A DNA stretch of 64,000 nt. It comes from Chloroflexota bacterium. GTDB lineage: Bacteria > Chloroflexota > Anaerolineae > Anaerolineales > Villigracilaceae. The position numbers and the translations under genes are program-made. Within the stretch, counting starts at the first letter, position 1; every line of letters starts with the position of its first letter. The stretch spans positions 951 through 64,950 of the forward strand of contig JAJYOU010000009.1 in the NCBI GenBank assembly GCA_021795965.1, in the 5' to 3' direction. The notes beneath the pieces are model-generated. The model made no database searches and was not told where the DNA came from. It saw only the letters and a list, made by a program, of their open reading frames with translations. Positions 9,611-62,457 of the stretch are shown here, piece by piece.

Positions 9611-11410
9611 ATGTCAGCACATATCCGCAACTTTTGTATCATCGCCCATGTTGATCATGGAAAATCCACCCTGGCTGACCGGTTGCTCCAGGTCACCGGT
9701 ACTATCTCTGAACGCGATATGACTGAGCAGGTTTTGGACAGCATGGATTTGGAGCGTGAGAAAGGCGTTACGATCAAAGCCTCGGCTGTCCGGATGAAAT
9801 ACAAAGCCCTGGATGGGAAGGAATACGAACTTAATTTGATTGATACCCCCGGGCACGTTGATTTTGGTTATGAAGTCAGCCGGGCACTCAATGCCTGTGA
9901 AGGCGCTGTTCTCGTCGTGGACGCCACCCAGGGAATTGAAGCGCAAACACTCGCAAATCTTTATTCGGCAATCAATGCCAACCTGGAAATCATCCCGGTC
10001 ATCAATAAGATTGACCTGCCCTCTGCGCATCCTGATGACGTCGCTGAGGATATATCATCACTCATCGGCGGTAAACCCGAAGATGTGATCCGGATTTCAG
10101 CCAAGGCTGGAATCAATATCGAACAAGTTCTTGAAGCCATCGTTAAAAAGGTGCCTCCGCCTGCCGGTTTGGATTCCGATACTCCTCGCGCCCTCATTTT
10201 TGATTCTCACTATGATGCTTATAAGGGCGTGATTTGTTATGTTCGCGTGATTGAAGGTTCGTTTTCTGCAACTGAAAGTATTTATTTGATGGCGACCGGC
10301 ATTCATGTGAAACCGATCGAAGTGGGTATCTTTGCCCCCATTATGAAGCCAGTCGAGCGATTAAATGCAGGGGAAGTCGGTTACATCGCGACTGGTTTAA
10401 AAACCGTTCATGAAGCACGGGTTGGAGATACGGTCACTAGCTCCAATAACCCGGCGAGCTCTCCTCTACCGGGTTATTTACACCCCAAACCGATGGTCTT
10501 TGCCGGCATTTATCCGGTGGATGCTGATGATTACACAGACCTGCGGGACGCACTGGAAAAACTCCAGTTAAATGATGCATCCCTCACTTACACCCCTGAG
10601 ACCTCCCAAGCAATTGGATTCGGTTTCCGCGCCGGTTTCCTGGGGTTGTTTCACATGGAAATTATCCAGGAACGAATTGAGCGGGAATATAACCTGGACG
10701 TTCTTTTCACGGCTCCTTCGGTTGAATATGAAGTCATCTTGGCAGGCGGTGACGTCTTGACCATTGATTCACCCGCCCAACTGCCTGAAGAAGCAATGGT
10801 GGCCGAAATCCGTGAACCCTGGATGAATATTGAAATCATCACCCCAACGGATTATTACGGCACCATCATGGACCTAGTGATTAACCGCCGGGGAATTTAC
10901 AAAGGTCAGGAATATCCAGCGCCTCACCGTGTACAGCTCAATTTTGAGATTCCTCTGGCTGAATTGATCGTGGATTTTTTCGACACTTTGAAATCCCGTA
11001 CAAAGGGTTATGCTTCCCTCGATTATCAATTCGCTGAATATCGCACAGATAAGCTGCAAAAATTGGAGATCTTGGTGAATGGAGACCCAATCGATGCACT
11101 CGCATCCATTGTTCATGAAAAAGACGCCTATCACAAGGGACAATCGCTGATTACCAAGTTAAAAGAAATCATTCCCCGCCAGCTGTTTGATGTTGCAATT
11201 CAAGCCTCATCCGGAGGTCGCATCATCAGCCGCGCGAACGTCAAAGCTATGCGAAAAGATGTCCTGGCGAAGTGCTATGGTGGTGATATCACCAGGAAAA
11301 AGAAGCTGCTTGAGAAACAAAAAAAGGGGAAGCGTCGCCTCAAAATGATCGGAAACGTGGAGATTCCACAGGAAGCTTTCATGGCAGTTTTGAAATTGGA
11401 GGCCGAGTAA
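9611..11410 (+). CDS. lepA: Translation elongation factor 4
   Basis: [35 protein letters not shown], and the LepA C-terminal domain ...[26 protein letters not shown]. Confidence 0.95.
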
Positions 11411-11483: not shown

Positions 11484-12518
11484 ATGTCCAATTTTCTAAG
11501 AGATTTTCGCCGCTTGCTTCCTGGTCTGGTGACCAGTTTTATCCTGGTCGCCGTGATTTTATATTTCGTGGACCTGCGCAAGACCATCGAGGCAATCAAG
11601 TCGGCGAACTATTTCATGCTTTTGGTCGTTCTCTTCCTGGGGATATTGTGGTTGTTGGTCCGCGGATTGGTCTGGCGAACTTTGCTGAGAAATCGCGCCT
11701 CCTATAAGGATGTATTCTTCACCCTGATGGAAGGCTACCTATTAAACAGCTTTTTACCCTTCAGGCTGGGAGAAATTGGTCGGGCTTTTCTGCTCAGCCG
11801 TAAAACCTCGTTGAACTTTATCGAAATACTCCCGACTATCATCGTTGAAAGGGTGATGGACCTGGCATTTTCCGCCGCAATCTTTATCATGGCGGTACCC
11901 TTTGTCGCAGGGGTGGGCAGCGCAAACCAGATTGGTTTTATCGTGGCAGGAATTGTCCTGCTGGGAATAGCAGCCATGTATTTATTGGCGCGCAACCGAC
12001 AATGGGCTCTCAATATTTTCCAAAAATTTGGACAGCGTTGGCCAAAAATCGGTGAGCTCGGTGGTAATCTCCTTGAATCATTTCTGAATGGTTTGGACAT
12101 ATTAACTGACCCGGTCCTTTTTGGTCGTTTTATTGGATTAATGACTTTGAACTGGGGCATGGCGATCGTCCAGTATTACCTTCTCACCAAGGCTTTTTTC
12201 CCACAGGCAACCTGGATCTGGGGCATGTTCGTGCTCGGAGCCGCTGCTTTTGGCGGGGCAATCCCATCCCTTCCGGGCGGAGTTGGCACCCTGGAAGGTG
12301 CCATGGCTGGGGCGGTGACCCTGCTCTCGGGCGATCAATCCGGTGCATTGGCAGTCGCCCTCAGCAGCCGTTTCCTTAATTATCTTTACAGTGGAGTATT
12401 TGGCTCAATTGGATTGTCCAAAGAAGGACAGACCATTTCCAGCATCTATCAACAATTAAAAAATTTGACCACTCGTTCTGAAGAAAAATCTTCCGGGACG
12501 GATTCCAAACAGGAGTAA
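11484..12518 (+). CDS. Flippase-like membrane protein (UPF0104 / lysyl-PG synthase TM-region family)
   Basis: About 8 TM segments, with the family-typical motifs FLPFRLGEIGRAFLL and PSLPGGVGTLEGAM. The first ATG is at 11484; the track's GTG at 11421 lies in the hairpin region. Confidence 0.7.
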   Translation: MSNFLRDFRRLLPGLVTSFILVAVILYFVDLRKTIEAIKSANYFMLLVVLFLGILWLLVRGLVWRTLLRNRASYKDVFFTLMEGYLLNSFLPFRLGEIGRAFLLSRKTSLNFIEILPTIIVERVMDLAFSAAIFIMAVPFVAGVGSANQIGFIVAGIVLLGIAAMYLLARNRQWALNIFQKFGQRWPKIGELGGNLLESFLNGLDILTDPVLFGRFIGLMTLNWGMAIVQYYLLTKAFFPQATWIWGMFVLGAAAFGGAIPSLPGGVGTLEGAMAGAVTLLSGDQSGALAVALSSRFLNYLYSGVFGSIGLSKEGQTISSIYQQLKNLTTRSEEKSSGTDSKQE

Positions 12519-12520
12519 AA

Positions 12521-13546
12521 ATGTCTGCCAATTATTTTGTAACCGGAGGAGCCGGGTTCATTGGTTCTAATTATGTTTCTCGCCTGATCAAGCGCGGCGA
12601 AAAAGTGACGATCTATGATAATCTGAGCCGGGCAGGTGCTCCCCGAAATCTAAAGTGGCTCCAGGATACTTACGGCGCAAAATCTTTTAACCTGGTAGCC
12701 GGGGATGTTCGCGATGCTGGTCAATTGGTCGTTTCAGCTCGCGAGGCAGATGTCATTGTCCACCTTGCCGGGCAGGTTGCTGTCACCACTTCAGTGGTCA
12801 ATCCCCGGGAAGATTTTGAAATCAATGCACAGGGCACTTTCAATGTGCTGGAAGCAGCCCGGCTCAATCAGCGCAACCCGATCTTTTTGTTCGCCTCCAC
12901 CAACAAGGTCTACGGCGGCATGGACGATGTCAAAGTCGTAGAAAGAGGTCAACGCTGGGAATATGAGAACCTGCCTTTCGGCGCAGCTGAGAACCAGCCA
13001 CTCGATTTCCATTCGCCTTATGGATGTTCCAAGGGCACTGGCGACCAATATGTGAGAGACTATCACCGAATTTATGGCTTGCGTTCGGTTGTGCTGCGCC
13101 AGAGTTGCATCTATGGTCCGCGACAATTTGGTGTGGAAGACCAGGGTTGGGTAGCCTGGATGGTAATCGCAGCTCAAACCGGCAAGCCCATTTCGATTTA
13201 TGGAGATGGCAAACAAATTCGAGATCTTTTACATGTCTATGATTTGAATGACGCTTATGACGCTGTCATTCAAAATATCGATCAGATTCAGGGGGAAGTC
13301 TTTAACCTGGGCGGCGGTCCCGAAAATACCATGTCCGTCTGGACGGAATTCGGTCCGCGGCTTGAGAGATTGCTGGGCAAAACCATTCCAGTCACCTATG
13401 GCGACTGGAGACCAGGGGACCAGAAAGTTTTTGTAGCAGATATTCGCAAAGCAGCAAAACTATTAGGTTGGAAACCACAATATTCGGTCGAAAAAGGTGT
13501 CAAACAGTTATTCGACTGGGTCAGCGAAAACAAGGATCTGTTTTAA
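12521..13546 (+). CDS. NAD-dependent sugar-nucleotide epimerase/dehydratase (SDR; CDP-paratose-2-epimerase-like)
   Basis: Rossmann motif VTGGAGFIGSN and catalytic YGCSKGTGDQY (YxxxK). It starts 2 nt after the previous stop. Confidence 0.8.
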   Translation: MSANYFVTGGAGFIGSNYVSRLIKRGEKVTIYDNLSRAGAPRNLKWLQDTYGAKSFNLVAGDVRDAGQLVVSAREADVIVHLAGQVAVTTSVVNPREDFEINAQGTFNVLEAARLNQRNPIFLFASTNKVYGGMDDVKVVERGQRWEYENLPFGAAENQPLDFHSPYGCSKGTGDQYVRDYHRIYGLRSVVLRQSCIYGPRQFGVEDQGWVAWMVIAAQTGKPISIYGDGKQIRDLLHVYDLNDAYDAVIQNIDQIQGEVFNLGGGPENTMSVWTEFGPRLERLLGKTIPVTYGDWRPGDQKVFVADIRKAAKLLGWKPQYSVEKGVKQLFDWVSENKDLF

Positions 13547-13553
13547 GGTTTTC

Positions 13554-14726
13554 ATGATGAAAATTCTGACAGTTCTCACCTATTATCGTCCACATACCTC
13601 CGGTCTGACAATTTATGCTGAGCGGTTGGCTGAAGCTTTTGTTCGTCGTGGACACGAGGTGACCGTACTTACCTCTCATTTCGACCCCTCCACTCCTGCC
13701 CAGGAATTTCGAAACGGCGTAAAAATCGTCAGGGCACCGGTGGCACTGCGCATCAGCAAAGGCGTGATCATGCCCACCTTCGGACTGCTGGCATGGAAAT
13801 ATGTTGCTGAAAATGACCTCATCCAGTTGCATTTGCCCCAGTTTGATGCTCCCGGGTTTGCATTACGTGCGCGTTTATTTGGAAAAGTGTCCATTCTGAC
13901 TTACCACTGTGATTTACAGCTCCCAGGTGGATTTTTCAATAATTTGGTCAACAAAGTTGTGGATTTTCAGAATTCCTCGGCTGCAGCTTTCGCGAACCAC
14001 ATCGTTACCTACACACAGGATTACGCGGATAACTCTCCTTTCCTGTCGCGTTACAAACATAAATTGACACCTATTTTGCCGCCAGTTCAATTACCGCCTG
14101 CACCCAGGGGTGCAATCGAAACCCTCGCGGGGGAAAATCAAATTTTCCCTGAGGGTCGTTGGCCAGTGATCGGCATGGCCACCCGCTTTGCTTCCGAAAA
14201 GGGCGTTGAGATCCTGCTTGAAGCCCTGCCTGAAATCCTGGCGAAATATCCAAATGCCCAGGTTCTTTTCGCTGGCCAGCATCTGAATGTGATGGGCGAA
14301 CAGGCTTATTTCAACCGTCTGAGTCCCATCATCCGCAAATTTGAAGAAAGTGGACATTGGAAATTTTTAGGCAACTTGAAACCGGAGCAAATGGCAGCAT
14401 ATTATCCCAACCTGGATTTGCTGGTTGTTTCGAGTCTGAATTCCACCGAAGCCTTTGGACTGGTCCAGATCGAAGCCATGCTCAATAACGTCCCCTGCGT
14501 GGCATCTGCGCTGCCTGGTGTCCGTCGACCGGTGCAAATGACGGGCATGGGTCTGGTAACGCCAATTGGAGATGCGAAAGCTCTTGCAGATGCGGTCTTG
14601 CAGATTTTGAATGAACCGCAAAAATATCGCCGCGATTCTGCGGAGATCGCCACCGTTTACGATCCGGATTCAATCGCTTCGGAATATGAAAAGCTTTTTG
14701 AAAAACTTAAAAAACAAAACCCGTGA
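13554..14726 (+). CDS. Glycosyltransferase family 4 (GT-B, WcaI-like)
   Basis: N-terminus MMKILTVLTYYRPHTSGL and C-terminal E-x7-E region STEAFGLVQIEAMLNNVPCVAS. The ATG at 13554 removes the overlap implied by the track start at 13497. Confidence 0.8.
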   Translation: MMKILTVLTYYRPHTSGLTIYAERLAEAFVRRGHEVTVLTSHFDPSTPAQEFRNGVKIVRAPVALRISKGVIMPTFGLLAWKYVAENDLIQLHLPQFDAPGFALRARLFGKVSILTYHCDLQLPGGFFNNLVNKVVDFQNSSAAAFANHIVTYTQDYADNSPFLSRYKHKLTPILPPVQLPPAPRGAIETLAGENQIFPEGRWPVIGMATRFASEKGVEILLEALPEILAKYPNAQVLFAGQHLNVMGEQAYFNRLSPIIRKFEESGHWKFLGNLKPEQMAAYYPNLDLLVVSSLNSTEAFGLVQIEAMLNNVPCVASALPGVRRPVQMTGMGLVTPIGDAKALADAVLQILNEPQKYRRDSAEIATVYDPDSIASEYEKLFEKLKKQNP

Positions 14727-14779
14727 GCAAATTTTTCATCCATTAATCTTAATTAAACCAACAGTGAGTCCTTCCAAAT

Positions 14780-15577
14780 ATGTCTGAAACCAGCACCAAG
14801 GATTTTTTATTTCTTCACACCCGAGATTTGCCTTATTTTCGCGCTTTTTTACGGGCGGTCGAATCGCGTTTTTACCAGAACTTGGATTTGCCATCGCCCA
14901 CCCTGGATATTGGTTGCGGGGATGGGCATTTTACCGAGTTAACATTCGACCGGAAACTTGAAGTCGGGCTGGATCCCTGGACAGGTCCGATTCATGAGGC
15001 GGGTACCCGCAGGGTCTACAACCTGCTCACCGAAGCGAATGGCGATGCCATGCCATACCCGGACGCTTTTTTTTCAAGTGCGATCAGCAACTCTGTCCTG
15101 GAACATATCCCCCAGTTGGACGCAGTCTTACTGGAAACCGCGCGCGTACTCAAACCCGACGCGATTTTCGTTTTTTGTGTGCCAAACCAAAATTTTTTAC
15201 CGAACCTGTCAATTGCAAAATTTTTCGACCGACTGGGACTAAAACCGCTAGCCAGGGCATATCGCGGGTTTTTTAATAAAATTTCGCGCCATATTACCTG
15301 CGAAAATCCAGATCAATGGAGGGAGAGGCTAGAGTCCGCAGGCTTTTCTATTGACAAATACTGGAATTATTTTTCCCCGAATGCCCTGGCGACCCTGGAA
15401 TGGGGACATTATTTTGGCGTTCCCTCCTTGATCCTCCATTTTTTAACCCGCCATTGGAACATCACAAAAGCCAAGTGGAATTTTGTGCCCATCATGTCCA
15501 TTTTGCGCAAATATTACAATGAACCAGTCCCGCAGGAAAAAGGCGCTTATACCTTTTATGTTACTCACAGAGTATAA
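14780..15577 (+). CDS. Class I SAM-dependent methyltransferase
   Basis: Motif I LDIGCGDGHFT and post-I/II region FFSSAISNSVLEHIP. Confidence 0.75.
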   Translation: MSETSTKDFLFLHTRDLPYFRAFLRAVESRFYQNLDLPSPTLDIGCGDGHFTELTFDRKLEVGLDPWTGPIHEAGTRRVYNLLTEANGDAMPYPDAFFSSAISNSVLEHIPQLDAVLLETARVLKPDAIFVFCVPNQNFLPNLSIAKFFDRLGLKPLARAYRGFFNKISRHITCENPDQWRERLESAGFSIDKYWNYFSPNALATLEWGHYFGVPSLILHFLTRHWNITKAKWNFVPIMSILRKYYNEPVPQEKGAYTFYVTHRV

Positions 15578-15616
15578 AGATTCCACCGCCTTTTGGTCTG
15601 AAGAGAGTATGCACGC

Positions 15617-17788
15617 ATGAAAGAACCCAGCGTTCTTGATTTTATAAAATCCAGGTTAAATCCCTGGCAAAAAGAAAAAATTCATATTCCTGCGGCTGCA
15701 ATTGGAGCATCAGAACCAAATATTTTAATTCCAGAAAACGCTTCTCAGGGCGAATCTCAATCAGCCAGCAGCTCTGGTAGGGAGCTAAATCCTGCTTCAA
15801 ATGGTGACTTGTTTAAGCTTTTCCCCTGGCGAACTTTAATTGCTCTTTTTCTTGCCCTGGTTGCCCAAAAAATGTTGGAACCACCTTCGCCTTCAATTCC
15901 AATGGCTCTTGGCCTGTATGTCATTTCGTTGGTTTTCCTTGTTTGGGCAAATTTTCGTCAGGAATTTGTCCTGCCCGGCAGGGAATCTGTACCGGAAGCT
16001 GTCGACCCGCAAACCTTCCGTACTCGCAGCCTGACATTTTCCATTTTTTTGGCATTGCTGGCATTCCTTTTATTTTCAAATAATTTATTTACAGCCCTGA
16101 ATGTCACCATCTGGTTGCTTGCCATCCTGATGTTTTTACATGGGCTCTGGCTGGGTGGATCATGGAAAACAGTTTTAATGAAAGGTTTCTCTTTCTTAAG
16201 GCAGGAAAACTGGAACCTGAAAATTTCGCGCCAGGCTCTGCTGCTGATCGCAATTATCCTAATCATACTTTTTTTTCGTTTTTATAACCTGAGCGGGGTC
16301 CCGGGTGAACCATTCAGCGACCACGCCGAAAAACTGCTGGATGTTTTCGATATCACACAGGGGCAAACCCACATATTCTTTCCCCGCAACACAGGGCGCG
16401 AATTTATTCAATTTTACCTGACTGCCCTCATTGCTGGCTGGTTGGGTACAGGTCTTTCCTTCCTTAGCCTAAAAATTGGGACCGCCTTGATCGGTCTCTT
16501 TACTCTACCTTTCATTTACTTGTTAGGAAAGGAAATTGGTGGCAAGCGGGTTGCAGTTTTCGCCCTGTTTTTGGCTGGCACATCTTACTGGTTAAATACA
16601 ATCAGCCGTATTGGCTTGCGGTTCCCGCTTTACCCGGCTTTCACTGCCCCGGCGTTATATTTTCTGATTCGCGGTTTACGGCGCCAGACTCGTAATGACT
16701 TCATTCTCTCGGGCTTATTCCTCGGATTAGGCTTGAACGGGTACAGCCCCTATCGAATAGTTCCGTTTGTCCTGGTACTTGCTGCTGGTTTATTCCTGCT
16801 CCACAAGCAATCCAGCGGGAAGCGAAAGCAAACCCTGATATTGTTTGCAATCCTGGTTCTGGCTTCTATCTTCTTATTTCTCCCGCTGGGCAGATACGCT
16901 CTCGAAAATCCGCAAATGTTTTCATACCGTGCCTTGACGAGGTTGACAGGTGAAGAGCAGGCGTTTACCGCTCCTGTCTGGAAAATTTTCCTTGACAATT
17001 CTTTCAATGCCATGCTGCTCTTCAATTATAACGATGGGGAGATTTGGGTTCATTCCATTCCACATCGCCCTGCCCTGGATGTCATCAGCGCCGTTCTATT
17101 TTTGTTCGGTTTCATCTTCCTCCTGGTTCGATATTTTCAAAAACGGGACTGGTTGGATTTATTCCTTTTACTTTCAATACCAATGCTTTTATTGCCTTCC
17201 ACCCTATCCCTGGCATTCCCCAACGAAAACCCATCTCTTAACCGGACCGGTGGAGCGGCGGTGATTGTCTTCATCATCGCTGCCATGGCGCTCGACGCGA
17301 TTTACACCAGCCTGATCAGGCAAAAGAGGCGGATCTGGCAGATTTCTGCTCTGGTCTTGGTTGGTGGAATGTTAACCATTTCAGCCAATCAAAGTTATGA
17401 TCTCGTTTTTCATCAATTTTCTGATGAATTCATGAACGGCGCGTGGAACACTTCGGATATCGGGAATGTGATTCACGCATTTGTCGAAGAAGGTAACAAT
17501 CCTGACAATGCCTTCGTGGTTCCCTACCCTTACTGGGTGGATACCCGCCTGGTGGGCATCCAGGCTGGATATCCAACCAAGGATTATGCGCTCTGGAGTA
17601 AAGACCTCAGTCAAACCCTGGCTGTAAGCGGAAATAAACTCTTTATCTTCAAGGAAGAGGATCAGGAAACCATGGATATCCTCAAAAAACTCTATCCGTC
17701 TGGCATGCTGGGACACTTTAACGCATCCTTGCCGGGCAAAAACTTCTGGATCTTTACGGTTTCCGAAAACCTGCCACCAGCCTCCTGA
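15617..17788 (+). CDS. Polytopic membrane protein, GT-C-type (GT39/ArnT/PMT_2-like) glycosyltransferase candidate
   Basis: 723 aa with more than 12 TM segments. The first-loop acidic motif follows RFYNLSGVPGEPFSDHAEKLLD. There is a C-terminal soluble domain of about 130 aa. Confidence 0.55.
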   Translation: MKEPSVLDFIKSRLNPWQKEKIHIPAAAIGASEPNILIPENASQGESQSASSSGRELNPASNGDLFKLFPWRTLIALFLALVAQKMLEPPSPSIPMALGLYVISLVFLVWANFRQEFVLPGRESVPEAVDPQTFRTRSLTFSIFLALLAFLLFSNNLFTALNVTIWLLAILMFLHGLWLGGSWKTVLMKGFSFLRQENWNLKISRQALLLIAIILIILFFRFYNLSGVPGEPFSDHAEKLLDVFDITQGQTHIFFPRNTGREFIQFYLTALIAGWLGTGLSFLSLKIGTALIGLFTLPFIYLLGKEIGGKRVAVFALFLAGTSYWLNTISRIGLRFPLYPAFTAPALYFLIRGLRRQTRNDFILSGLFLGLGLNGYSPYRIVPFVLVLAAGLFLLHKQSSGKRKQTLILFAILVLASIFLFLPLGRYALENPQMFSYRALTRLTGEEQAFTAPVWKIFLDNSFNAMLLFNYNDGEIWVHSIPHRPALDVISAVLFLFGFIFLLVRYFQKRDWLDLFLLLSIPMLLLPSTLSLAFPNENPSLNRTGGAAVIVFIIAAMALDAIYTSLIRQKRRIWQISALVLVGGMLTISANQSYDLVFHQFSDEFMNGAWNTSDIGNVIHAFVEEGNNPDNAFVVPYPYWVDTRLVGIQAGYPTKDYALWSKDLSQTLAVSGNKLFIFKEEDQETMDILKKLYPSGMLGHFNASLPGKNFWIFTVSENLPPAS

Positions 17789-17802
17789 ATGGATTAATAG
17801 AC

Positions 17803-20800
17803 ATGAAAAAATCAAACAATCGGCTCTGGCTTTACAACTTACTCTTCTTATTGATCCTTGGCTCGGCGGGCTATTTTCGTTTAATCGGTTTGGATTGGGA
17901 TCAGAGCCAGCATCTGCATCCGGATGAACGGTTTATGACGATGGTCGAATCGGCATTGGAACCCGTAAAAAGTCTTTCGGATTATTTCAATACCAAGATT
18001 TCTCCCCTTAATCCGAACAACCGTGGTTATTCATTTTATGTCTATGGTGACCTCCCCCTTGTGATTGTTCGGTACGCAGCCGAAGCGATGACATCCTTGT
18101 CCAAAATGGTGGATGGTCCGGCGTTTGTCAATTGGGCTGGATATGATCAAGTCACACTTGTGGGACGAGTCTTCTCTGCATTGTCTGATCTGGGTTCATT
18201 AATATTATTGTTCCTGATTTCCAGAAAATTATACGGCGAGAAGGTGGCTCTCCTTGCATCCGCCTTTTCAGCCTTGGCTGTGATGCAGATCCAGGAATCA
18301 CATTTCTTCACGGTAGACATGTTCGCCAATTTTTGCATGTTTTTGGCAACATTTTTTGCCGTTGAAATCATGCTTTTCCCTGAGAAAAATTTGATCGATG
18401 AAGACCAATCTGTACCGTCCAATCCTGAAACTCGGTTTATACATAATTTGCAAAATTATTTTCACAATCCACTTTTTTGGAACGTAATCGGCTTTGGACT
18501 GTCATTGGGCGCCGCGGCGGCATCCAAGCTGAATGCCGCACCGCTGGCGATCCTGCTCCCGGGCGCATTTTTGATCAGGTATTTCAAACAAAGCAAGCTC
18601 CCAAAAATCAATGCCGAGGACGAATCCCAACCTGATGATGAATCTGAACCGGGGAATGATACTGACAATGCTGCAAATCAACCTCAAAAAGCATTAAGCC
18701 TGGAAGCCATCTTCGGATTCCTCGTTTTGGGAGGAGTGGTTTCCATCCTGGCGTTCAGAATTTTGATGCCTTATGCCTTCAGTGGACCTAGCTTTTTGGG
18801 TGTCACCCCCAATCCCCAATGGGTATCGAACATTACGGAACAACGCGCCCAAGCCGGAGGTGATGTGGATTTTCCGCCCGCCCTGCAATGGGCGCGGCGC
18901 TCCATCCTGTTTTCCGGCTATAACCTGGCTGCCTGGGGCTTGGGTTGGCCTCTCGGCTTATTGGCATTGGCTGGTTTTCTATACATGGGTTGGCGCATCC
19001 TTAAAGGAGATTGGAAGGATCATCTCCTTTTATGGGCTTGGACAGGTTTGTATTTTGCCTGGCAATCCACCCAGTGGAACCCCACCATGCGCTACCAGCT
19101 TCCGATATATCCACTTTTGGCATTGCTGGCAGCCTGGTTCATATTTAATGGTCCCCGATTTATTTTCAAAAAACGAAATCAAAACCCGCAGACCCTTCCG
19201 GAACCGGCCAAGGCAGTTAATGTTTTTTATTTCATTCTTGCGAGTGTCGTCCTGATCGCAACAATTGCCTGGGCTTATGCCTTTACACGAATATATACGC
19301 GCGACCACACGCGAGTCCAGGCTTCGCATTGGATTTACCAGAATGTCCCCGGACCCTTTAACCTCAAAATCAAACAGGCGGATGGTTCAACTTATACCCA
19401 ACCCATGCCCATCCCGCAGGGATTTGTTCTTGCTTCCTCTGCTCCTTATGAGGTTCAATTTACAGCGTTCGCAACTGGGGAACTTTCCGCTATTTACATT
19501 GCCCATGCAGCAAACGTTGGAAATCCAGGCATGGTCAATCTCACTGTCGAACTTTACGCCACCCCCAATTTAAAAACTCAACCATTGGCGAAAGCCAGTC
19601 TTACCGCAGATTTTGGCGTCACATCCGACTCGCGCGGTGGAGATATCACCCTTAACCTGGATAACTCCGTTCCAGTTGCAGTCGATACAAATTACTTCCT
19701 AAGATTTTCAACCACTGGAAATCTTTCCATCTCAGGGTCCATCCCTGTTCATGAAACTTCCTGGGACGATGGCTTGCCTTTACGTATGGACGGCTACGAT
19801 CCGTACGGTGGAATTTACGAAGGCGATCACAACTTTGAGATGTACTGGGACGATAATGCCGATAAGTTGAATCGCTTCGAATCCAACCTGGATAGTGGGG
19901 ATTACATTTTTATCACTTCTGATCGCCAGTGGGCGACCACCACGCGGGTTCCTGAGCGCTACCCTCTTACCACGACTTATTACCGCGACCTGATCGGCTG
20001 CCCGGATAACATGGACGTAATCTGGTGTTACAACGTGGCCAATCCCGGTCAATTCAACGGCAAACTAGGCTTTGAATTGGTAAAAACGTTCACATCTTAC
20101 CCTGAAATCTTTGGGATTCAATTTAATACACAGTTTGCCGAAGAAGCATTTACTGTCTACGATGCGCCCAAGGTGCTTATTTTCAAGAAGACGAGTTCAT
20201 ATAATTCTCAGACCGTTCGAAAATTACTGGGCGCGGTGGATTTGACGCACGTTGTCCACGTTACACCGAGGCAGGCAGGCCGCTTTCCCGGCGACCTGAT
20301 GTTGCCAGGGGCGATGCTGGCAGCCGACCGTGCGGGCGGCACCTGGAGCGAGTTATTTTCCTACGATTCCCTACAAAACAAGTACCCTCTCCTGGGGTTG
20401 CTACTTTGGTATCTCGCAATTGGGATTCTGGGTTTGTTCACCTGGCCGATTTTGCGTTTATTTTTGCCGGGTTTATCCGACAGGGGTTATCCCCTCGCCA
20501 AACTGGGTGGCTTATTATTCCTCGCTTACCTTGTCTGGATGTTCGCCTCACTGGGCGGGACCTATTCCCGCACCACGATCGCGATTGCATACGCGGGGAT
20601 CATGGTGGTCGGAGCGGTCGCGTTTTTCCATCAAAGAGATTCAATCCTCAACGATTTGCGCACCAATGGGAAATATTACCTGATTGTTGAAATCCTCATT
20701 GCTGTTTTCTTTTTAATCGATTTTGCCATTCGCATGGGAAATCCTGATTTATGGCACCCTGCCCGTGGCGGCGAACGACCGATGGATTTCTCCTATTTAA

Positions 20801-22785
20801 ATGCGGTCATCAAGAGCACTGTCTTTCCGCCCTATGACCCCTGGTTCGCCGGCGGTTACATCAATTATTATTATTGGGGCTTTGTACTGGTGGGCACACC
20901 CATCAAATTGCTCGGAATTGTGCCTTCAATCGCCTATAATTTTGTCTTACCAACCTTGTTTGCCATGCTGGGAATAGGTGGTTTTTGTGTGGTCTGGAAC
21001 CTGACAAGCGGTTTCAACCTGAAGGAAACACGGACTTTTACACTTCAGTTGCTGGCCGGGCTGGCAGGTGGAGCAGGCTTGGTCTTAATCGGAAACCTGG
21101 GTACCATCCAGTTAATTTTCCACGCTTTGCAAAAAATGGTCATGACGAATGAGATTGTTGACGCCCAAAACGTCTGGATATTCCAGCGTTGGCTTTGGGC
21201 TGCCCAGGGTCTGGGTAAAATGCTTTCTGGTATCCCTTTGCCAATCGGCTTGGGGGAATATTATTGGGCTCCCAGTCGTGTGATGCCTGTTGGCGATCTG
21301 GCGATCACTGAATTTCCATTATTTACTTTTATTTACAGTGATCTCCATGCGCATATGATCGCTTTACCTCTGACGGTTATGGCAATTGCCTGGTCCCTTT
21401 CCACCCTTCGCGCCCGGAATCTTAGTCGCCTAGCCTGGCTGGCAACCATTGCCTTTGGTGGTCTGATCATCGGTGTGTTGCGTCCCATCAATACCTGGGA
21501 TTTCCCAACATATCTGATCTTCGGTTCAATCATCACGGGTTATTCACTCTTCCGATATGGGAGTCTGGATTTATTGCCAAAGATCAATTTAAACAATTCC
21601 ATCCGCAGGGTTCTATTAGCCCTCTTAGGCATGGGTCTCCTGGTCGGTTTTGCTTTCCTTTTCTTCCAGCCTTTTGCACATTGGTATGGGTTGGCTTATA
21701 CAAAAGTCAGCCTTTGGACGGATAACAAGACCCCAATCGGCTCCTATTGGACCCAATTTGGCTTCTTCCATTTTGTCATCATTTCATGGATGCTATGGGA
21801 AACACGTCAATGGATGGCTCAGACTCCAGCCTCGGCGCTTTTAAAACTTAAACCTTACCAACTTTTGATCGAGATCTTCTTCGCCGTAATGACCGGTTTA
21901 TACTTGGCTCTGCAGTTTATTTTGAATGTCCCGATTGCCTGGTTCGTCTTCCCGTTTGCAGTTTGGGCGCTCATCCTCATGCTGCGCCCTGGGCTACCCG
22001 ATGTCAAACGATTGGTTCTGTTCATGATCGGCACAGGACTGGTATTAACTCTTATTGTCGAGTTTATGGTTCTCTCGGGTGATATCGGGCGCATGAATAC
22101 CGTATTTAAATTTTATTTACAAGCCTGGGTTTTGTTTGCCATCAGCTCCGCTGCCGCCCTGGGTTGGATCTTCTATGAATTTGATGAATGGGGTCGGGTT
22201 GGAAAAATCGTTTTTCAGATCATTTGCAGCCTCCTGCTGGCTGGGACAATCCTTTTTACATTTACCGCAAGCATGGATAAAATTCGGGACCGAATTTCAC
22301 CAAATATTCCTTTCACACTTGATTCTATGACCTTTATGCAGTATTCCACATACCAGGATCAAACCAATATGGATCTCAAGCAGGATTATCTTGCCATCCG
22401 CTGGATGCAGGATAATATCAAAGGATCCCCGGTCATCGTAGAAGCCAACACTCCCGAATACCGCTGGGGAACCCGTTTCACAATTTATACTGGACTGCCC
22501 GGAGTGGTGGGTTGGAACTGGCATGAACGACAGCAACGCGCCTTGTTCCCGCCAGAATGGGTCACAAACCGTATACAGGAAATTTCCAATTTCTATAACC
22601 TGCCCGATTCATCCTCCATTAAAAGCTTCCTGGAAAAGTACGACGTAAAATATATTGTTCTGGGACAACTTGAGCGAGCGATTTATGATCCAACCGGCAT
22701 TGCAAAGTTTGAAACATTAAATGGCACACTTTGGAGTACGGTTTACCATGACGCAGACACGACCATTTACGAGGTGATGCCTTGA
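17803..22785 (+). CDS. 1660-aa fusion protein: N-terminal GT-C-like polytopic module, a central soluble region, and a C-terminal Chlor_Arch_YYY (DUF2298) module
   Basis: The N-terminus reads [25 protein letters not shown], followed by TM bundles. The soluble region spans about aa 500-850. From about aa 853 (nt ~20360) the protein is collinear with the whole 819-aa protein at 23173. Its YYY motif [11 protein letters not shown] is at 20866-20874. Confidence 0.65.
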   Translation: [1660 protein letters not shown]

Positions 22786-23150
22786 GTCTTATTTATCACA
22801 TTGCTCCTCGAAGTTCGGTTAAAGCAGCCCAAAAGGTGGGAGAATATCAAAATGAAAGCCTCCTGCGGGACGGTTTCATACACTTTTCCCAGCACAACCA
22901 GGTCCTGGGTGTGGCGACTGCGTTCTACAAAAACCAGAAAGATTTGGTCATCCTGGTCGTTGAGACGGACCTTCTAAAGGCTGATCTGAAATTTGAAGCA
23001 CCGGTTCACCCAGGTCAATCCACTGCCTCCACTACTCCTTCAGCCGGCCAGCTTTTTCCACATCTCTATGGACCGCTAAATTTCGATGCTGTCTTGGATA
23101 TTGTGGATTTTCCTCAAAAAGCGGATGGAAGTTTCGAATTGCCTTTCTAA
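22782..23150 (+). CDS. DUF952 family protein
   Basis: MSLIYHIAP..DGFIHFSQ..LVILVVETDLL..LKFE..LFPHLYGPLNFDAV matches my memory of the DUF952 pattern. The TTG start overlaps the upstream TGA (cTTGA). Confidence 0.6.
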   Translation: MSLIYHIAPRSSVKAAQKVGEYQNESLLRDGFIHFSQHNQVLGVATAFYKNQKDLVILVVETDLLKADLKFEAPVHPGQSTASTTPSAGQLFPHLYGPLNFDAVLDIVDFPQKADGSFELPF

Positions 23151-23172
23151 TTAACGACGAACCTGCGAGCCT

Positions 23173-25632
23173 ATGGAACACTTTCTTTTCTGGTACCTCT
23201 TCATCACACTATTAGGATGGTTAACTTTCCCCCTATCCTACAAATTATTTCCTGCGCTCGCGGATCGGGGTTACAGCCTGAGCCGGGCTCTCGGATTTCT
23301 GCTCTGGGGTTTTGTATACTGGATTGCCGTTTCATTTGGCCTGGTTTTGAATGAAATTGGAGGCTTGTTATTTGCACTGATCCTGGTGATTGGTCTCTCG
23401 CTTTGGGCATTACGAAAGCAAGCGGCAACACCCGGCGATAATTTCCTCGACGGTTTTCAATGGAACGAAGTTCTTGAATGGCTCAAAACCCACCTGAAGC
23501 TGGTTCTTTCCATTGAGGTCCTTTTCCTGCTGGCTTTTGCAGCCTGGACATTTGTGCGAGCCAATAACCCGGATATCGTTGGTACCGAAAAGCCCATGGA
23601 AGTCGCATTCATTAATGCGATTCTTCATTCTCCATTTTTTCCACCGCATGATCCCTGGTTAAGTGGTTATGGAATTTCATATTATTACTTCGGCTATGTG
23701 CTCACCGCCATGCTGGCAATGCTTACCGCTACCGAAGGAAATATCGCTTTTAACTTGATGCTGGCGTTGATTTTTGCCCTGAGTGTCATAGGTGCATATG
23801 GGCTGCTCACAAATTTATTGGCGGCTCACTGGAAGCACAATCACCGGGAAGATCGGGATTTTTCAGTCATTTTTTGGTCTCTATTCGGTCCGCTTTTCCT
23901 AGTGCTGCTTGGAAACATGGAAGGATTTTTGGAATTGTTATATTCGTTGGATATCGGCTGGAAAAACAAAACCACTAATTTCTGGCTCTGGCTGAACATG
24001 AAAGATCTTAACTTTCCACCTGTTTCTTCTTTATCCTGGAACCCGAGATTCTGGTTTTGGTGGCGTGCCTCGCGCGTGCTCCAGGATTTTGATTTGCGCG
24101 GAAATTTTGTCGAAGTGATAGATGAATTCCCCTTTTTCTCATATTTATTGGGAGATCTCCACCCTCATGTACTTGCAATGCCCTTCGGATTATTGGCGGT
24201 CTCACTTGGGCTCAACCTTTATTTGGGCGGCTGGCAGGGTGAAACGTCTTTTTGGAGTCTTTTTAAGATTAAAGTTTCCAGGGCTGGGCTCATCTTATCG
24301 GCGGTTGTGCTTGGGGGATTGGCTTTTCTCAACACATGGGATTTCCCGGTTTATCTGGCAGTCATCAGCAGTGCCTATATCCTTTTTCTGGTTAACCAGG
24401 ACGGTTGGGATTGGAGTCTGATCGAAGAATTTCTCAAGTTTTCGATCCCTCTCGGTCTGGCAAGTATTTTGTTGTACCTGCCTTTTTATGCCAGTTTTTC
24501 TTCGCAAGCAGGTGGCATTCTGCCGAATATCATTTTCCCAACACGTGGAATTTACATCTGGATCATGTTTGGAACCTTGCTGATTCCGATGTTTATGTTC
24601 ATGATCTTCCAGCAAAACCTGCGCCAGGCGAACTGGAAGAAAGGGCTTTTGATCGGATTTGGATTAACCCTCGCGTTGTTTTTGTTCTCCCTCATACTGG
24701 GCGTTATCGCTGGACAAACCGAAAGCGTTCAGGCTTATATCCAGGCTCAGGGATATTCGACCATCTGGAATTTGCTTCCCGCAGCCCTGCTGCGCCGGGT
24801 TGAATTCGGGGGTGGTTTAATAATCCTTATCCTTTTGGTTTCCGCTTCAATCGCTTTTTTGAGTGCCAAACAATCCACCAGCGAAGCTGAACCATCCGAA
24901 ACCCCTAATCCGATGCCGTTTATTTTCCTGCTCATTTTATTGGGCGGATTACTGGTCATGGCACCTGAATTTTTTTATTTGCGGGACCAGTTCGGCAATC
25001 GCATGAATACAGTCTTCAAGTTTTATTATCAAGCCTGGACATTCTGGGCGCTTGCCGCGTCTTTTGGTTTTGTTGTGATGATCACTGAGCTGCGCAGGTT
25101 TCGATCCTTAATAGTCGGATTTACGATGATTTTGGTTCTCTTTGCAGGACTGACCTATCCCATCCTCGCCCTGCCCAACAAAACAAATAATTTCAATTTT
25201 GCCAATCCACAGCTACGAACGTTGAATGGGGCTGCCTTCCTTGAATCCTCCAGCCCGGATGATTACCGTGCAATCGAATGGCTTTCTCATGCAAATGCCG
25301 GCATCGTGGCTGAGGCAGTCGGCGGCAGTTACTCCGAATTTGCACGTGTCTCCACCTTTTCTGGACAGCCCACCGTGCTTGGCTGGCCTGGTCATGAAGG
25401 TCAGTGGAGGGGCGGCTATACCGAAGTGGGGAATCGTGAAAAAGATATCGCCAAGCTTTATGTAACACATAATTGGTCAGACGCTGCATCAATTTTAAAT
25501 CTTTACGATATCCGCTACGTTTACATCGGTACATTGGAACGTACAACCTATGCCATGGATGATCGGAAATTTAAAGATCATTTAACAGAAGTTTATAATC
25601 AGGGTCAGGTGGTCATCTATGAAGTACCTTAG
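23173..25632 (+). CDS. Chlor_Arch_YYY (DUF2298) domain membrane protein
   Basis: 819 aa, polytopic. [35 protein letters not shown], with YYY at 23680-23688. It is a paralog of the C-terminal half of the 1660-aa protein ([11 protein letters not shown] vs [11 protein letters not shown]). Confidence 0.7.
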   Translation: [819 protein letters not shown]

Positions 25633-25683
25633 ATCCGATTTGCATTTCATTTTGATCCAAATTTTGGAAGTAAAATAACTCTC

Positions 25684-27408
25684 ATGACGGAACAATCCCG
25701 GGAACACAATTTTGAATTTGCGTTGTTCGGCTTGGCGTTTATTCTCGCGCTTGCGCTTCGTTTGTTTCGCCTGGATGTTTTACCCATGGGGGATGTTGAA
25801 GCTTCCTGGGCTTTGCAGGCTTTGAACCTTTCAAAGGGTCTCAGACCAGAGATTGGCGCTCAACCCGCCTATGTGATTTTTACTGGATTGTTGTTTTACA
25901 TTCTTCCAGTCACCAACTTTACCGCGCGATTGGTACCCGCAATTTCTGGCGCACTCCTTTGCCTGATCCCATTCCTTTTCAAGGATAAATTAGGCATTAA
26001 AGTTTCGGTGATCCTGGCTTTTTTCCTGGCTCTTGACCCAGGTTTTCTGGCTCTCTCCCGCACAGCCGGCAGTCCCATTCTTGCGCTTGCAGCCTTTCTT
26101 TTTGCACTTGGATATATTTATCGTGGTCAATCAGCCCAGGCTGGGGTCTTGCTCGGTATCGCCTTGCTAAGTGGACCAATCTTGTGGCCAGGTCTGATTG
26201 GGCTGGGTCTTGCTGCCAGTTTACAAAAAGGATTGTTCTCGAAAAATCTTTCCGGTGATAACCAAACCCCCGCTCCAATCCTGCACGCTCACGGGACACT
26301 CAAGAAATGGACAACAATTGCACTTTCTGCCGCGGGAACCTACGTCCTCCTGGGAAGCTTATTCTTTTTGGTACCAGGCAGCCTTGGATCAGGTCTCGAT
26401 TCGATCCCTGCTTACCTGAAAAGTTGGGTCAACGTCAGCGATGTTCCTATCACCCGCCTCATCCTGGGTCTGGTCTTCTATGAAATCCTGGCATTGGTTC
26501 TCGCTCTGATCGGCTTGGTGCGTGGAATAATCCAACGTGACAGGTTGGTAATTTTTCTCGGATTCTGGTTGTTGACCTCAGCCATCCTGGCAATCGCCAA
26601 CCCCTCGCGTACCACTGCTGATCTTATCTGGCTTCTCGTCCCTCTTTTGACCCTGGCTGCCCAGGAAGTATCCAGAAACATGCTTCCTGTTTTGGATGGC
26701 GCTTTGGAAACAATTGGAATGATGGTTTTCACGGTCGCAATTCTGGTTTTTTCATATATTAATTATTCAGCCATCGCATTGACCTCCATGGATCAAGTTG
26801 CGTTCCAATTGCGTGTATGGGTTTTGATTGGAGCGGTCAGCCTCCTGGCAATCAGCATCGTCCTGATCGCTTTTGGATGGTCTTTTCCAGTCGCTTTCCA
26901 GGGAAGCACCTGGGGAGTATTTCTTGTTCTGTTTTTCTACACCATTTCCACAGCGATGGCTGCCGGTGAACTTCGCTCGTATCAGACCCTTGAATTATGG
27001 CACTCAGGTCCTTATGCCGGACAGGTTCAGGTTATGACCAGGCAGCTGGATGATCTTTCCCGCTGGAAAACCGGGGTTGCCAAATCATTGGATGTGACAT
27101 TGGCAGAGATCGATTCCCCGGCAATTTTGTGGGCATTGAGAGATTGGCAAGTCAAAACAATTCCAGATGCCAATCTTTCAGATCAAACTCCTTCGATTGT
27201 GATTGCTCCAGATCAATTTACCAGCACAGAAATTGAATCTTCTTACCGGGGAAAAGATTGGATCTTGAGCACAAATCCTGCCTGGAATCAGGGTTTAATT
27301 TCTGATTGGTTGCGCTGGAGCGTATTGCATGTTTTCCCTCAATCAAACGAAAAAATTATCATGTGGGTGCGTAGTGATTTGTTTTTAGATTTTCAAAATA
27401 ACAGGTAA
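25684..27408 (+). CDS. Polytopic membrane protein, putative GT-C/TIGR03663-like partner of YYY proteins
   Basis: 574 aa with about 12 TM segments. The N-terminus reads LALRLFRLDVLPMGDVEASWALQAL. It ends with a soluble tail of about 130 aa. The family assignment is tentative. Confidence 0.45.
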   Translation: MTEQSREHNFEFALFGLAFILALALRLFRLDVLPMGDVEASWALQALNLSKGLRPEIGAQPAYVIFTGLLFYILPVTNFTARLVPAISGALLCLIPFLFKDKLGIKVSVILAFFLALDPGFLALSRTAGSPILALAAFLFALGYIYRGQSAQAGVLLGIALLSGPILWPGLIGLGLAASLQKGLFSKNLSGDNQTPAPILHAHGTLKKWTTIALSAAGTYVLLGSLFFLVPGSLGSGLDSIPAYLKSWVNVSDVPITRLILGLVFYEILALVLALIGLVRGIIQRDRLVIFLGFWLLTSAILAIANPSRTTADLIWLLVPLLTLAAQEVSRNMLPVLDGALETIGMMVFTVAILVFSYINYSAIALTSMDQVAFQLRVWVLIGAVSLLAISIVLIAFGWSFPVAFQGSTWGVFLVLFFYTISTAMAAGELRSYQTLELWHSGPYAGQVQVMTRQLDDLSRWKTGVAKSLDVTLAEIDSPAILWALRDWQVKTIPDANLSDQTPSIVIAPDQFTSTEIESSYRGKDWILSTNPAWNQGLISDWLRWSVLHVFPQSNEKIIMWVRSDLFLDFQNNR

Positions 27409-27513: not shown

Positions 27514-28191
27514 ATGCCTAAATTTTCTATTATTGCGATCGATGGCCCGGCAGCGTCTGGAAAATCTACACTTGCTTTCCGCCTGGCTGCCGCGCTCGGT
27601 TTTCTTTATTTTGATACAGGTCTCATGTACCGTGCAATTACCTGGGTGGCAATCAATCGCAAACTGAATGTGCTTGACGAAATTGGAGTTTCCAGGCTGG
27701 CTGAAAATGTCCAGATCGAGGTCTTGCCGCCTTCACTTTCAGATGGTCGTCCCTGTGATGTCGTCGTCGAAGGTCGCGACATCACCTGGGAAATACGAAA
27801 TCCGGATGTCGAAGCAAATGTCTCCATCGTTTCCGCCTATCCAGGTGTACGCCGAGCACTCACTCAGCAGCAGCGCCGGATTGGGCTGCACGGGCACGTC
27901 GTCATGGTGGGTCGGGATATCGGAACGGTTGTTCTACCCGAAGCAGATTTAAAAATTTACCTGGATGCTTCAGCCGCAGTAAGAGCACAGCGTCGCTTTA
28001 GCGAGTTAATCGGTCGCGGCATGAAAGTTAAATATTCTGAAGTTCTGGAAAAAGTGATCGAGCGAGATCGAATCGACACAAATCGCGACATTGCTCCTCT
28101 CATTCCTGCCAAAGACGCGGTGATTATCGATTCAGATAATCTGGATGCGGACAAGGTTTTTGAAAAGATTTTTGATTTATGCAATGATTAA
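27514..28191 (+). CDS. cmk: Cytidylate kinase
   Basis: IAIDGPAASGKST and FLYFDTGLMYRA, with the typical length of 225 aa. Confidence 0.9.
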   Translation: MPKFSIIAIDGPAASGKSTLAFRLAAALGFLYFDTGLMYRAITWVAINRKLNVLDEIGVSRLAENVQIEVLPPSLSDGRPCDVVVEGRDITWEIRNPDVEANVSIVSAYPGVRRALTQQQRRIGLHGHVVMVGRDIGTVVLPEADLKIYLDASAAVRAQRRFSELIGRGMKVKYSEVLEKVIERDRIDTNRDIAPLIPAKDAVIIDSDNLDADKVFEKIFDLCND

Positions 28192-61066: not shown

Positions 61067-61078
61067 AATCTTGTTTCC

Positions 61079-62377: not shown

Positions 62378-62457
62378 TACTTTCCTCCAAAAAGCTTAAC
62401 GCTCATGATCCCAAGGAAGTTCCCTCGAAACCTGTTGTTTCTTAAATTCCCCATTTT

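Follow-up and report, generated by a model that had tools for sequence, protein, structure and literature searches.

We analyzed a 64,000-nucleotide stretch of contig JAJYOU010000009.1 (assembly GCA_021795965.1), from a Chloroflexota bacterium of the Anaerolineales, hereafter called the window, and within it a cluster of nine plus-strand genes, g1 to g9, which lies between lepA and cmk and covers about 16 kb (11421 or 11484 to 27408, according to the open reading frame [ORF] list and an inspection of start codons). We think it probable, though well short of certain, that these nine genes constitute one envelope glycosylation unit that belongs to the core genome of the Anaerolineales and builds a cell surface sugar structure. 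The cluster most likely encodes five glycosyltransferase modules of the GT-C fold, namely, g5, both halves of the fusion protein g6, g8, and g9, three of which come from families without a studied member. An earlier note on this DNA had assigned the genes to families, and searches of Pfam and NCBIfam reproduced all of those calls.

Predicted GT-C modules

A Kyte-Doolittle scan found 11, 20, 15, and 11 transmembrane (TM)-like segments in g5, g6, g8, and g9, respectively, which makes all four polytopic (about 8 to 13 TM helices or more). The suggestion that these proteins are GT-C-like held for g5, through a Pfam PMT_2 match above threshold, and for g8 and g9, through structural comparison with Foldseek; the N-terminal module of g6 has only a weak PMT_2 match. 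Sequence and profile searches of PDB sequences with g5, g8, g9, and the N-terminal module and middle domain of g6 gave nothing usable; g8 and g9 were tied to GT-C enzymes through comparison of folds only.

g9 belongs to a large family (1,339 cluster representatives at an E value of ≤1e-30 in an exhaustive search) and has no Pfam match. Its AlphaFold2 model, based on aligned homologues, is a helical bundle (pLDDT, 88.7; pTM, 0.87) whose best match among PDB structures is ArnT (E, 1.9e-9; TM-scores, 0.54/0.57), followed by ALG9, ALG12, STT3, AglB, PglB, Pmt4, AftD, and ALG6. All of the top 27 matches (probability of ≥0.99) are GT-C enzymes, and the modeled structure thus shows a GT-C fold. The catalytic Asp or Glu of GT-C enzymes is located just after the first TM helix, and acidic residues are conserved at this position in g5 (D235/E238), in the N-terminal module of g6 (D41-E42), and in g9 (D37/E39). 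In g9 they form a D37-x-E39 motif after TM1. Across 58 orthologues, E39 is at least 92% conserved, and neither residue varies in an alignment of 46 sequences.

A different role for g9, and possibly for other GT-C-like members of the cluster, would be that of a translocase or flippase partner for lipid-linked sugars, like Agl23, with g1 serving some other lipid-related purpose. The earlier note had described TIGR03663 as a family without known function; it now carries the NCBIfam name "flippase activity-associated protein Agl23," and 43 of 46 members of the g9 family match it (best E, 3.8e-19). Moreover, Agl23 of Haloarcula hispanica rescued a yeast rft1-delta strain and translocated M5GN2-PP-Dol in proteoliposomes (PMC11182771). 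Against this stands the score of the window's g9, the one family member compared with the cut-off, which reaches 54.7 bits where 126.25 are required, in a match confined to its N-terminal 135 residues (residues 17 to 151 on model positions 6 to 143 of 435), a part shared with PMT-like transferases. g9 is, by its sequence, a distant, subthreshold relative of TIGR03663/Agl23 and not a member. It also retains the acidic pair at the GT-C catalytic position, and its fold aligns over its full length with ArnT, ALG9, and ALG12; we therefore regard a translocase role as very unlikely.

g8 is a stand-alone DUF2298 (Chlor_Arch_YYY) protein that scores 513.4 bits against TIGR03662 (curated cut-off, 300.25 bits) and 354 bits against Pfam DUF2298 (gathering score, 27.8). 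The C-terminal module of g6 (residues 864 to 1658) scores 476 and 340 bits against the same models and aligns with g8 at an hhalign probability of 100 and about 30% identity. The YYY motif is conserved in both (S169-Y-Y-Y-F-G in g8 and Y1022-Y-Y in g6), and these motifs, together with scores above the cut-offs, make both members of the family, to which the protein collection contributes at least 7,447 homologues of g8. The AlphaFold2 model of g8, built from a homologue alignment, is again a helical bundle (pLDDT, 84.9; pTM, 0.90). Only three matches in the PDB reached a Foldseek probability of ≥0.99 with it: the C-mannosyltransferase DPY19 (E, 1.7e-4; probability, 1.0), ArnT (E, 0.014; probability, 0.99), and the C-terminal globular domain of archaeal AglB-S2 (probability, 1.0; TMt, 0.48). 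The last of these aligned to g8's own C-terminal globular domain. These matches support a GT-C-like fold for g8, less firmly than for g9. We considered whether DUF2298 might simply be a diverged PMT_2 family and rejected the idea, because profile-profile comparisons with g5, the N-terminal module of g6, and g9 gave probabilities of 24% at most. A literature search found no functional study of DUF2298, and the PDB holds no related structure; an ORF table compiled from gene neighborhoods lists a DUF2298 ORF, two PMT_2 ORFs, and a Rossmann-fold ORF in another Chloroflexi genome (PMC8756737).

g6 joins a PMT_2-like N-terminal module (residues ca. 1 to 490) and a middle domain (ca. 490 to 860) to the DUF2298 module described above, and the fusion is encoded by a single ORF of 1590 to 1844 aa in about 50 species. 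Its N-terminal module matches PMT_2 weakly (E, 7e-4) and archaeal STT3 faintly, and it carries an invariant H39-P-D41-E42 motif after TM1; from these features a GT-C fold is probable. In g5, the GT-C module starts near residue 203, and PF13231 matches residues 279 to 420 with 39.3 bits (gathering score, 26.1), by which family match g5 is classed as a PMT_2-type GT-C protein. Its D235-H-A-E238 motif, which a TM helix immediately precedes, is kept in no fewer than 92% of 49 orthologues. Profile comparisons of g5 with the N-terminal module of g6 (E, 4e-4) and with g9 (E, 8e-4) were weak.

The middle domain of g6, a conserved, TM-free stretch of about 370 aa between two GT-C modules (residues ca. 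490 to 865; positions 19270 to 20397), has no match in Pfam, NCBIfam, or the PDB. Its invariant residues include C733-P734, E651, D655, and D666, and C742 and the stretch Q777-x-A-E-E-x-F-T-x-Y-D are conserved in at least 90%.

The families present leave room for a protein O- or N-glycosylation machine, in which the GT-C modules, in place of making a polysaccharide or lipoglycan, would modify proteins that are secreted or belong to the S-layer or sheath, as PMT or an oligosaccharyltransferase does. The PMT_2 matches of g5 and of the g6 N-terminal module are consistent with this, as are the faint STT3 match of the latter, the AglB-like C-terminal domain of g8, and the presence of STT3, AglB, and PglB among the structural matches of g9. 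However, no PMT, MIR, or PMT_4TMC match was found in any protein of the cluster, even at E values of up to 10 for g5, the g6 N-terminal module, and g9, and we rejected an assignment of g5 to PMT proper (GT39), given a PMT_2 match without MIR or PMT_4TMC. No WWDYG-type motif was identified, and the best structural match of g9, ArnT, is a lipid-modifying enzyme. Furthermore, five GT-C modules exceed the need of known protein glycosylation systems and are more reminiscent of the assembly lines for mycobacterial arabinan and mannan. Protein glycosylation seems to us rather unlikely, and it is in any case a variant of an envelope glycosylation unit and not its opposite.

Genes for putative cytoplasmic synthesis and flipping

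g1 is a stand-alone, MprF-type flippase-like membrane protein, with 139.7 bits against PF03706 (LPG_synthase_TM; residues 38 to 323 of 365) and 84.6 bits against TIGR00374 ("flippase-like domain"). It shares the flippase-type TM domain of MprF but is not an MprF, because it has no synthase domain: no aminoacyl-phosphatidylglycerol synthase domain was found in g1, and the model of the bifunctional protein, NF033480, gives 16.1 bits against a cut-off of 600. Hopanoid loci pair the UPF0104 protein HpnL with the glycosyltransferase HpnI and with HpnA, a short-chain dehydrogenase/reductase (SDR); no match of g1 at the level of HpnL was found.

g2 is an extended-SDR nucleotide sugar epimerase of the CDP-tyvelose 2-epimerase (TyvE) type. 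Its best relatives in the PDB are TaTyvE (9rl0; E, 3.5e-97; 328.7 bits) and Salmonella TyvE (1orr; E, 9e-85; 287.8 bits), other SDR classes reach 135 bits at most in the same sequence search, and the motifs G9-x-x-G12-x-x-G15 and Y167-x3-K171 are invariant among homologues. Sequence places g2 firmly in this family, and its substrate is predicted from its relatives, among which TaTyvE is a C2 epimerase that interconverts CDP-glucose and CDP-mannose (PMC13098431, PMC7851689).

TyvE-type homologues 58 to 72% identical to g2 also occur in other settings. At four metagenome loci (L104, L114, L115, and L163), they are found beside an S1-domain protein, an M19 dipeptidase, a rhomboid, or a sulfatase, with a g1-like tblastn match directly upstream. 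Local hidden Markov models (HMMs) of g5, both PMT_2-like and DUF2298 modules of g6, g8, and g9 found no GT-C gene nearby, which indicates that these loci truly lack them.

g3 is a GT4 glycosyltransferase of the GT-B fold (Pfam Glycos_transf_1, 100 bits; Glyco_transf_4, 50 bits) and is predicted to be cytoplasmic. It falls below every NCBIfam equivalog cut-off, and its best PDB matches, which cover the C-terminal domain only, are PimA and Tll1590 (6kih), which we take to be a sucrose-phosphate synthase. g4 is a class I S-adenosylmethionine-dependent methyltransferase (Pfam Methyltransf_23 and Methyltransf_11). It is an accessory component, being absent from six loci (L069, L074, L075, L076, L079, and L082) that have kept the remainder of the cluster.

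Arrangement and conservation of the cluster

The distances between successive genes from g1 to g9 are 2, 7, 53, 39, 14, −4, 22, and 51 nt. The single overlap is that of the TTG start of g7 with the TGA stop of g6, by 4 nt. The earlier note had counted ten genes, although there are nine and its own listing also sums to nine; the tight spacing and overlap that it described are borne out, with a maximum gap of 53 nt in place of 52. Likewise, all nine genes do run in one direction, but this is a property of the entire surroundings: every ORF of at least 150 aa between positions 6654 and 42404, a run of about 36 kb, is on the plus strand, and codirectionality is therefore not specific to the cluster. 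What is informative is how closely the genes are packed and how coherent their families are. In a consensus scan, promoter-like sites were at chance level (26 observed versus 26.2 expected), and terminator-like sites were all intragenic, with none in any gap between g1 and g9.

Gene order proved to be conserved in relatives, as the reading in the earlier note required, across about 80 Anaerolineales species and many metagenome contigs. When one genome per species was scanned with g8, 80 loci were obtained, with a g8 identity of 42 to 61%, and 79 of them are labeled Anaerolineales, Anaerolineae, Chloroflexota, or "uncultured Chloroflexia"; the sole exception is a contig binned as Syntrophothermus. 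The identity of g8 across the roughly 80 Anaerolineales species is 42 to 65%. When the window's proteins were placed by tblastn on 82 g8-anchored loci, the order g3, g4, g5, g6, g7, g8, g9, cmk, plsC, and histidine kinase gene was found nearly everywhere, with g6 upstream of g8 in 61 of 68 evaluable loci and g9 downstream in 58 of 69. For the 5′ part of the cluster, searching metagenomes with g1 as the sole query brought up no relative, and a g2 alignment was used as the anchor instead. Among these metagenome loci, g1 lies upstream of g2 homologues in 49 of the 58 that could be evaluated, g3 is downstream in 39 of 51, and g5/g6 follow in 20 of 27.

Not every gene is needed. Losses of g4, g5, and g7 occur in some lineages, and a reduced form, lepA-g1-g2-g3-g6-g8-g9-cmk, is seen at L069, L136, L139, and L153. 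Since even the most reduced loci retain g1, g2, g3, g6, g8, and g9 together, we take these six genes to be the core.

g7, whose start overlaps g6, encodes a DUF952 protein (PF06108, 92.8 bits) that matches the PDB entry 2o0q (CC0527) with an E value of 7e-12. DUF952 belongs to the ADP-ribosyltransferase superfamily clan and has a Tpt1-like fold (PMC8120803, PMC7955679). Of 68 evaluable loci, 57 contain the gene. Most species have it, translationally coupled, between two GT-C genes, and it is cleanly absent from 11 loci of more divergent species (L016, L023, L060, L066, L069, L070, L074, L076, L079, L081, and L082). We know of no glycosylation system of which the DUF952 family is a part, and g7 is an accessory gene. 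A tie between its Tpt1-like fold and sugar-phosphate chemistry was considered, and no evidence supports it.

DUF2298 genes in other neighborhoods

A tblastn search of plasmids located DUF2298 genes outside the Chloroflexota. On plasmid pNP95 of Pseudobutyrivibrio xylanivorans, the gene sits within a polysaccharide locus with wecB, two epimerase/dehydratase genes, two GT2 genes, and genes for a DegT aminotransferase, a glucosyltransferase-domain protein, and an O-antigen ligase family protein. A second was found on a Halarchaeum megaplasmid, and its product, used as a query, retrieved further haloarchaeal DUF2298 proteins. In Halanaeroarchaeum sulfurireducens (L087, 6661 to 10277) and Halomicrobium salinisoli (L088, 6691 to 10379), the DUF2298 gene divergently adjoins two genes, one for a GT2 enzyme (ca. 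255 aa) and one for a GtrA_DPMS_TM protein. In NCBIfam, this GT2 best matches models of polyprenyl/dolichyl-phosphate sugar synthases, namely, AglJ, PpgS, dolichyl-phosphate hexose transferase, and ArnC, with scores that stay below each cut-off. Judged by its families, this trio is the classical make-flip-transfer set of three components, in which DUF2298 takes the place of the GT-C enzyme, and it lends outside support to the make-flip-transfer logic that the earlier note had proposed for the cluster. It is also the one indirect hint that these proteins may use lipid-phosphate-linked sugar donors at the outer membrane face. In Halobacterium, a Wzx-type flippase gene lies beside the DUF2298 gene, together with a 447-aa neighbor that has no NCBIfam match. 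Other haloarchaea retain the same neighborhood without the GT2/GtrA pair.

By the TIGRFAMs description, TIGR03663 tends to occur near TIGR03662. The earlier note had mentioned such a co-occurrence, which found no support here: none of the six archaeal DUF2298 loci examined has a TIGR03663 neighbor, and g9 is below the cut-off of that model.

Lone DUF2298 genes also occur within the Anaerolineales. An uncultured Brevefilum sp. carries one outside any GT-C cluster (L054, 6412 to 12400), among housekeeping genes and two genes away from a LytR_cpsA_psr gene, whose family ligates glycopolymers to peptidoglycan. In Brevefilum fermentans (L033), the full cluster is present.

Proposed pathway and alternatives

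In the pathway that we infer, substrates, order of steps, and coupling of g1 to g4 with g5 to g9 included, g2 would supply an epimerized nucleotide hexose of the CDP-glucose/CDP-mannose kind in the cytoplasm, and the GT4 enzyme g3 would load the sugar so formed, at the inner face, onto a membrane lipid that acts as acceptor. g4, which most lineages have, may then methylate the product. Going by its family, g1 would move the lipid-linked sugar to the outer face, where the five GT-C modules would take sugars from lipid-phosphate-linked donors and attach them to an acceptor outside the cytoplasm. The outcome may be an elongated or branched glycan that is wall associated or lipid anchored, or it may be glycosylated surface proteins. 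g7 would stand beside this pathway as an accessory gene.

Several observations weigh against this reading. The cluster sits in an origin-proximal housekeeping region, within the long plus-strand run, and the synteny takes in lepA, cmk, plsC, and the histidine kinase gene as well; because these flanks are equally syntenic, conservation alone cannot prove one functional unit. Three of the six archaeal loci (Halorussus, Haladaptatus, and Halarchaeum) and one Brevefilum locus have a DUF2298 gene without glycosylation neighbors, and g2 homologues occur in unrelated contexts. On the structural side, profiles of the g6 N-terminal module, g8, and g9 retrieve no PDB sequence, and the TM-scores of the g8 model are modest (0.35 to 0.41), which is why its assignment is the less firm of the two made from models. 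The candidate aspartate of DUF2298 in the first extracytoplasmic loop (D31 of g8, in D31-R32-G33) is only about 90% conserved, and it is a glutamate in the Halarchaeum protein. Finally, we know of no GT4 (GT-B) enzyme that makes donors for GT-C enzymes, and no GT2 polyprenyl-phosphate sugar synthase, priming phosphoglycosyltransferase, or sugar nucleotidyltransferase is encoded in the 64-kb window.

It is conceivable, then, that there is no single pathway and that we are looking at a slowly rearranging housekeeping neighborhood with two or more independent envelope functions, such as a glycolipid module of g1 to g4 and separate GT-C enzymes that use donors from elsewhere. The syntenic flanks and the plus-strand run would fit this, as would the lone DUF2298 genes, the loss of g4, g5, and g7 in some lineages, and the several metagenome loci in which g2 homologues, some with a g1-like match upstream, have no GT-C gene. 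It accounts less well for gaps of 2 to 53 nt and a start/stop overlap, for family functions that fit together, for a core of six genes that stays together even in the most reduced loci, and for the link of archaeal DUF2298 to make-and-flip genes. We judge independent functions to be unlikely and retain the single envelope glycosylation unit as our preferred reading.

That unit is not self-sufficient. The earlier note had suggested a complete pathway, for which the synthase, priming transferase, and nucleotidyltransferase are missing; no Glycos_transf_2 gene is present in the cluster or among all 45 window proteins scanned. Genes elsewhere must provide one or more essential activities, be it a synthase of polyprenyl-phosphate sugars or a phosphoglycosyltransferase for priming, along with a nucleotidyltransferase for the activated sugar. 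The note had also cast a GT-B enzyme as donor maker. It is GT2 (GT-A) enzymes, DPM1, ArnC, and GtrB among them, that make GT-C donors, and this role for the GT4 enzyme is for that reason unproven; direct synthesis of a GT-C donor by g3 was considered and, as no precedent is known, not adopted.

A bolder proposal, which we offer with low confidence, is that DUF2298 and the g9 family are two GT-C transferase families that, with the PMT_2 modules, build a hitherto undescribed, order-wide glycopolymer or lipoglycan for the envelope of the monoderm Anaerolineales. Its precursor would be supplied, by a route without precedent, through a TyvE-type epimerase, a GT4 enzyme, a methyltransferase, and an MprF-type flippase, in that order, which together would replace the canonical GT2 and GtrA.

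Surroundings of the cluster

The genes of the cluster and its immediate flanks are listed in Table 1. Farther upstream are dnaX, prmA, dnaJ, grpE, and hrcA, and the genes downstream are plsC, a large histidine kinase gene, rpmH-rnpA-yidD, yidC, jag, and parAB.

Table 1. Coordinates of the cluster genes and of the two flanking genes in the window
Gene	Position	Strand	Product length or place
lepA	9611-11410	+	5′ flank of cluster
g1	11484 (ATG) or 11421 (GTG) to 12518	+	344 or 365 aa
g2	12521-13546	+	341 aa
g3	13554-14726	+	390 aa
g4	14780-15577	+	265 aa
g5	15617-17788	+	723 aa
g6	17803-22785	+	1660 aa
g7	22782-23150	+	122 aa
g8	23173-25632	+	819 aa
g9	25684-27408	+	574 aa
cmk	27514-28191	+	3′ flank of cluster

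The long plus-strand run is headed by an ORF of 691 aa (6654 to 8729), upstream of a bPH_2/SHOCT protein gene and lepA, that has no Pfam or NCBIfam match. The histidine kinase (29133 to 32432, plus strand), which is kept beside the cluster in most Anaerolineales loci, is a dCache-HAMP-GAF-PAS protein of 1099 aa whose gene has no adjacent cognate response regulator gene. A regulatory link to the cluster is possible. Near the far end of the window, three minus-strand genes form a group (60320 to 63459): one for an N_BRCA1_IG-domain protein (60320 to 61066); one for a flavin adenine dinucleotide-dependent amine oxidase/PRK07233-type oxidoreductase (61079 to 62377; 444 bits), with weak HpnE and phytoene desaturase matches; and one for a second stand-alone flippase-like protein (62458 to 63459; LPG_synthase_TM/TIGR00374, 186 bits), with a weak HpnL match. 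This group may contain a separate lipid modification and flipping pair.

Relation to known systems

The Anaerolineales are abundant filamentous bacteria of digesters, sediments, and activated sludge, and, to our knowledge, next to nothing has been learned of the chemistry of their envelope. A set of five predicted GT-C modules within the core genome points to a defining component of that envelope and offers targets for structural and biochemical work. The cluster also provides a testable function for two large uncharacterized membrane protein families: DUF2298 has thousands of members in the Chloroflexota, the Archaea, and some Firmicutes, and the g9 family, which has no Pfam model, is likewise large. 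For the former, the haloarchaeal GT2-GtrA-DUF2298 triads provide a genetically tractable entry.

Among known systems, the three-component Gtr and Arn systems (GtrA/GtrB/GtrC, which modify the O-antigen of enterobacteria, and ArnC/ArnEF/ArnT) follow the same logic, in which a lipid-linked sugar is made inside, flipped, and transferred outside by a GT-C enzyme; pentofuranose systems of this three-component extracytoplasmic glycosylation have been described (PMC11127046). Like the cluster, the arn operon combines an SDR-type nucleotide sugar enzyme, a flippase, and a GT-C enzyme, the last being the best structural match of g9. Unlike these systems, the cluster has a GT4 enzyme, an epimerase of the TyvE type, a methyltransferase, and a flippase-like protein of the MprF type, and it encodes five GT-C modules where they have one. 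It contains no small GtrA_DPMS_TM, ArnE/F, or EamA-type flippase gene, g1 being in the analogous place, and, given that it has neither a GT2 synthase nor a GtrA or ArnEF flippase, it is not a canonical three-component system. Moreover, its place is within the core genome, with no link to phages or serotypes.

With the Agl22/Agl23 system of Haloarcula hispanica, which makes and flips dolichyl-phosphate-hexose, the cluster shares the N-terminal match of the g9 family to the Agl23 model; g9 itself differs in its subthreshold score over 135 of 435 model positions, in its full-length GT-C transferase fold, and in its acidic motif.

The assembly of arabinogalactan and lipo(arabino)mannan in mycobacteria and corynebacteria employs EmbA/B/C, AftA to AftD, MptA/B, and PimE outside the membrane and the GT4 enzymes PimA and PimB inside. 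As is proposed for the cluster, several large GT-C enzymes, some of more than 1,000 aa and with additional extracytoplasmic domains, build an envelope glycan that defines the lineage, and PimA and PimB make a lipid-anchored primer on the inside. PimA is among the PDB matches of g3, and AftD is among the structural matches of g9. The two differ in that the cluster proteins have no sequence-level relation to Emb, Aft, or Mpt, drawing instead on DUF2298, the g9 family, and PMT_2, and in that no genes for donor synthesis of the decaprenyl-phosphoarabinose (DPA) or polyprenyl-phosphomannose (PPM) type lie near the cluster. Were DUF2298 and the g9 family indeed two new GT-C families that build an order-wide glycan, its role in the Anaerolineales would be comparable to that of arabinogalactan and lipoarabinomannan in mycobacteria.

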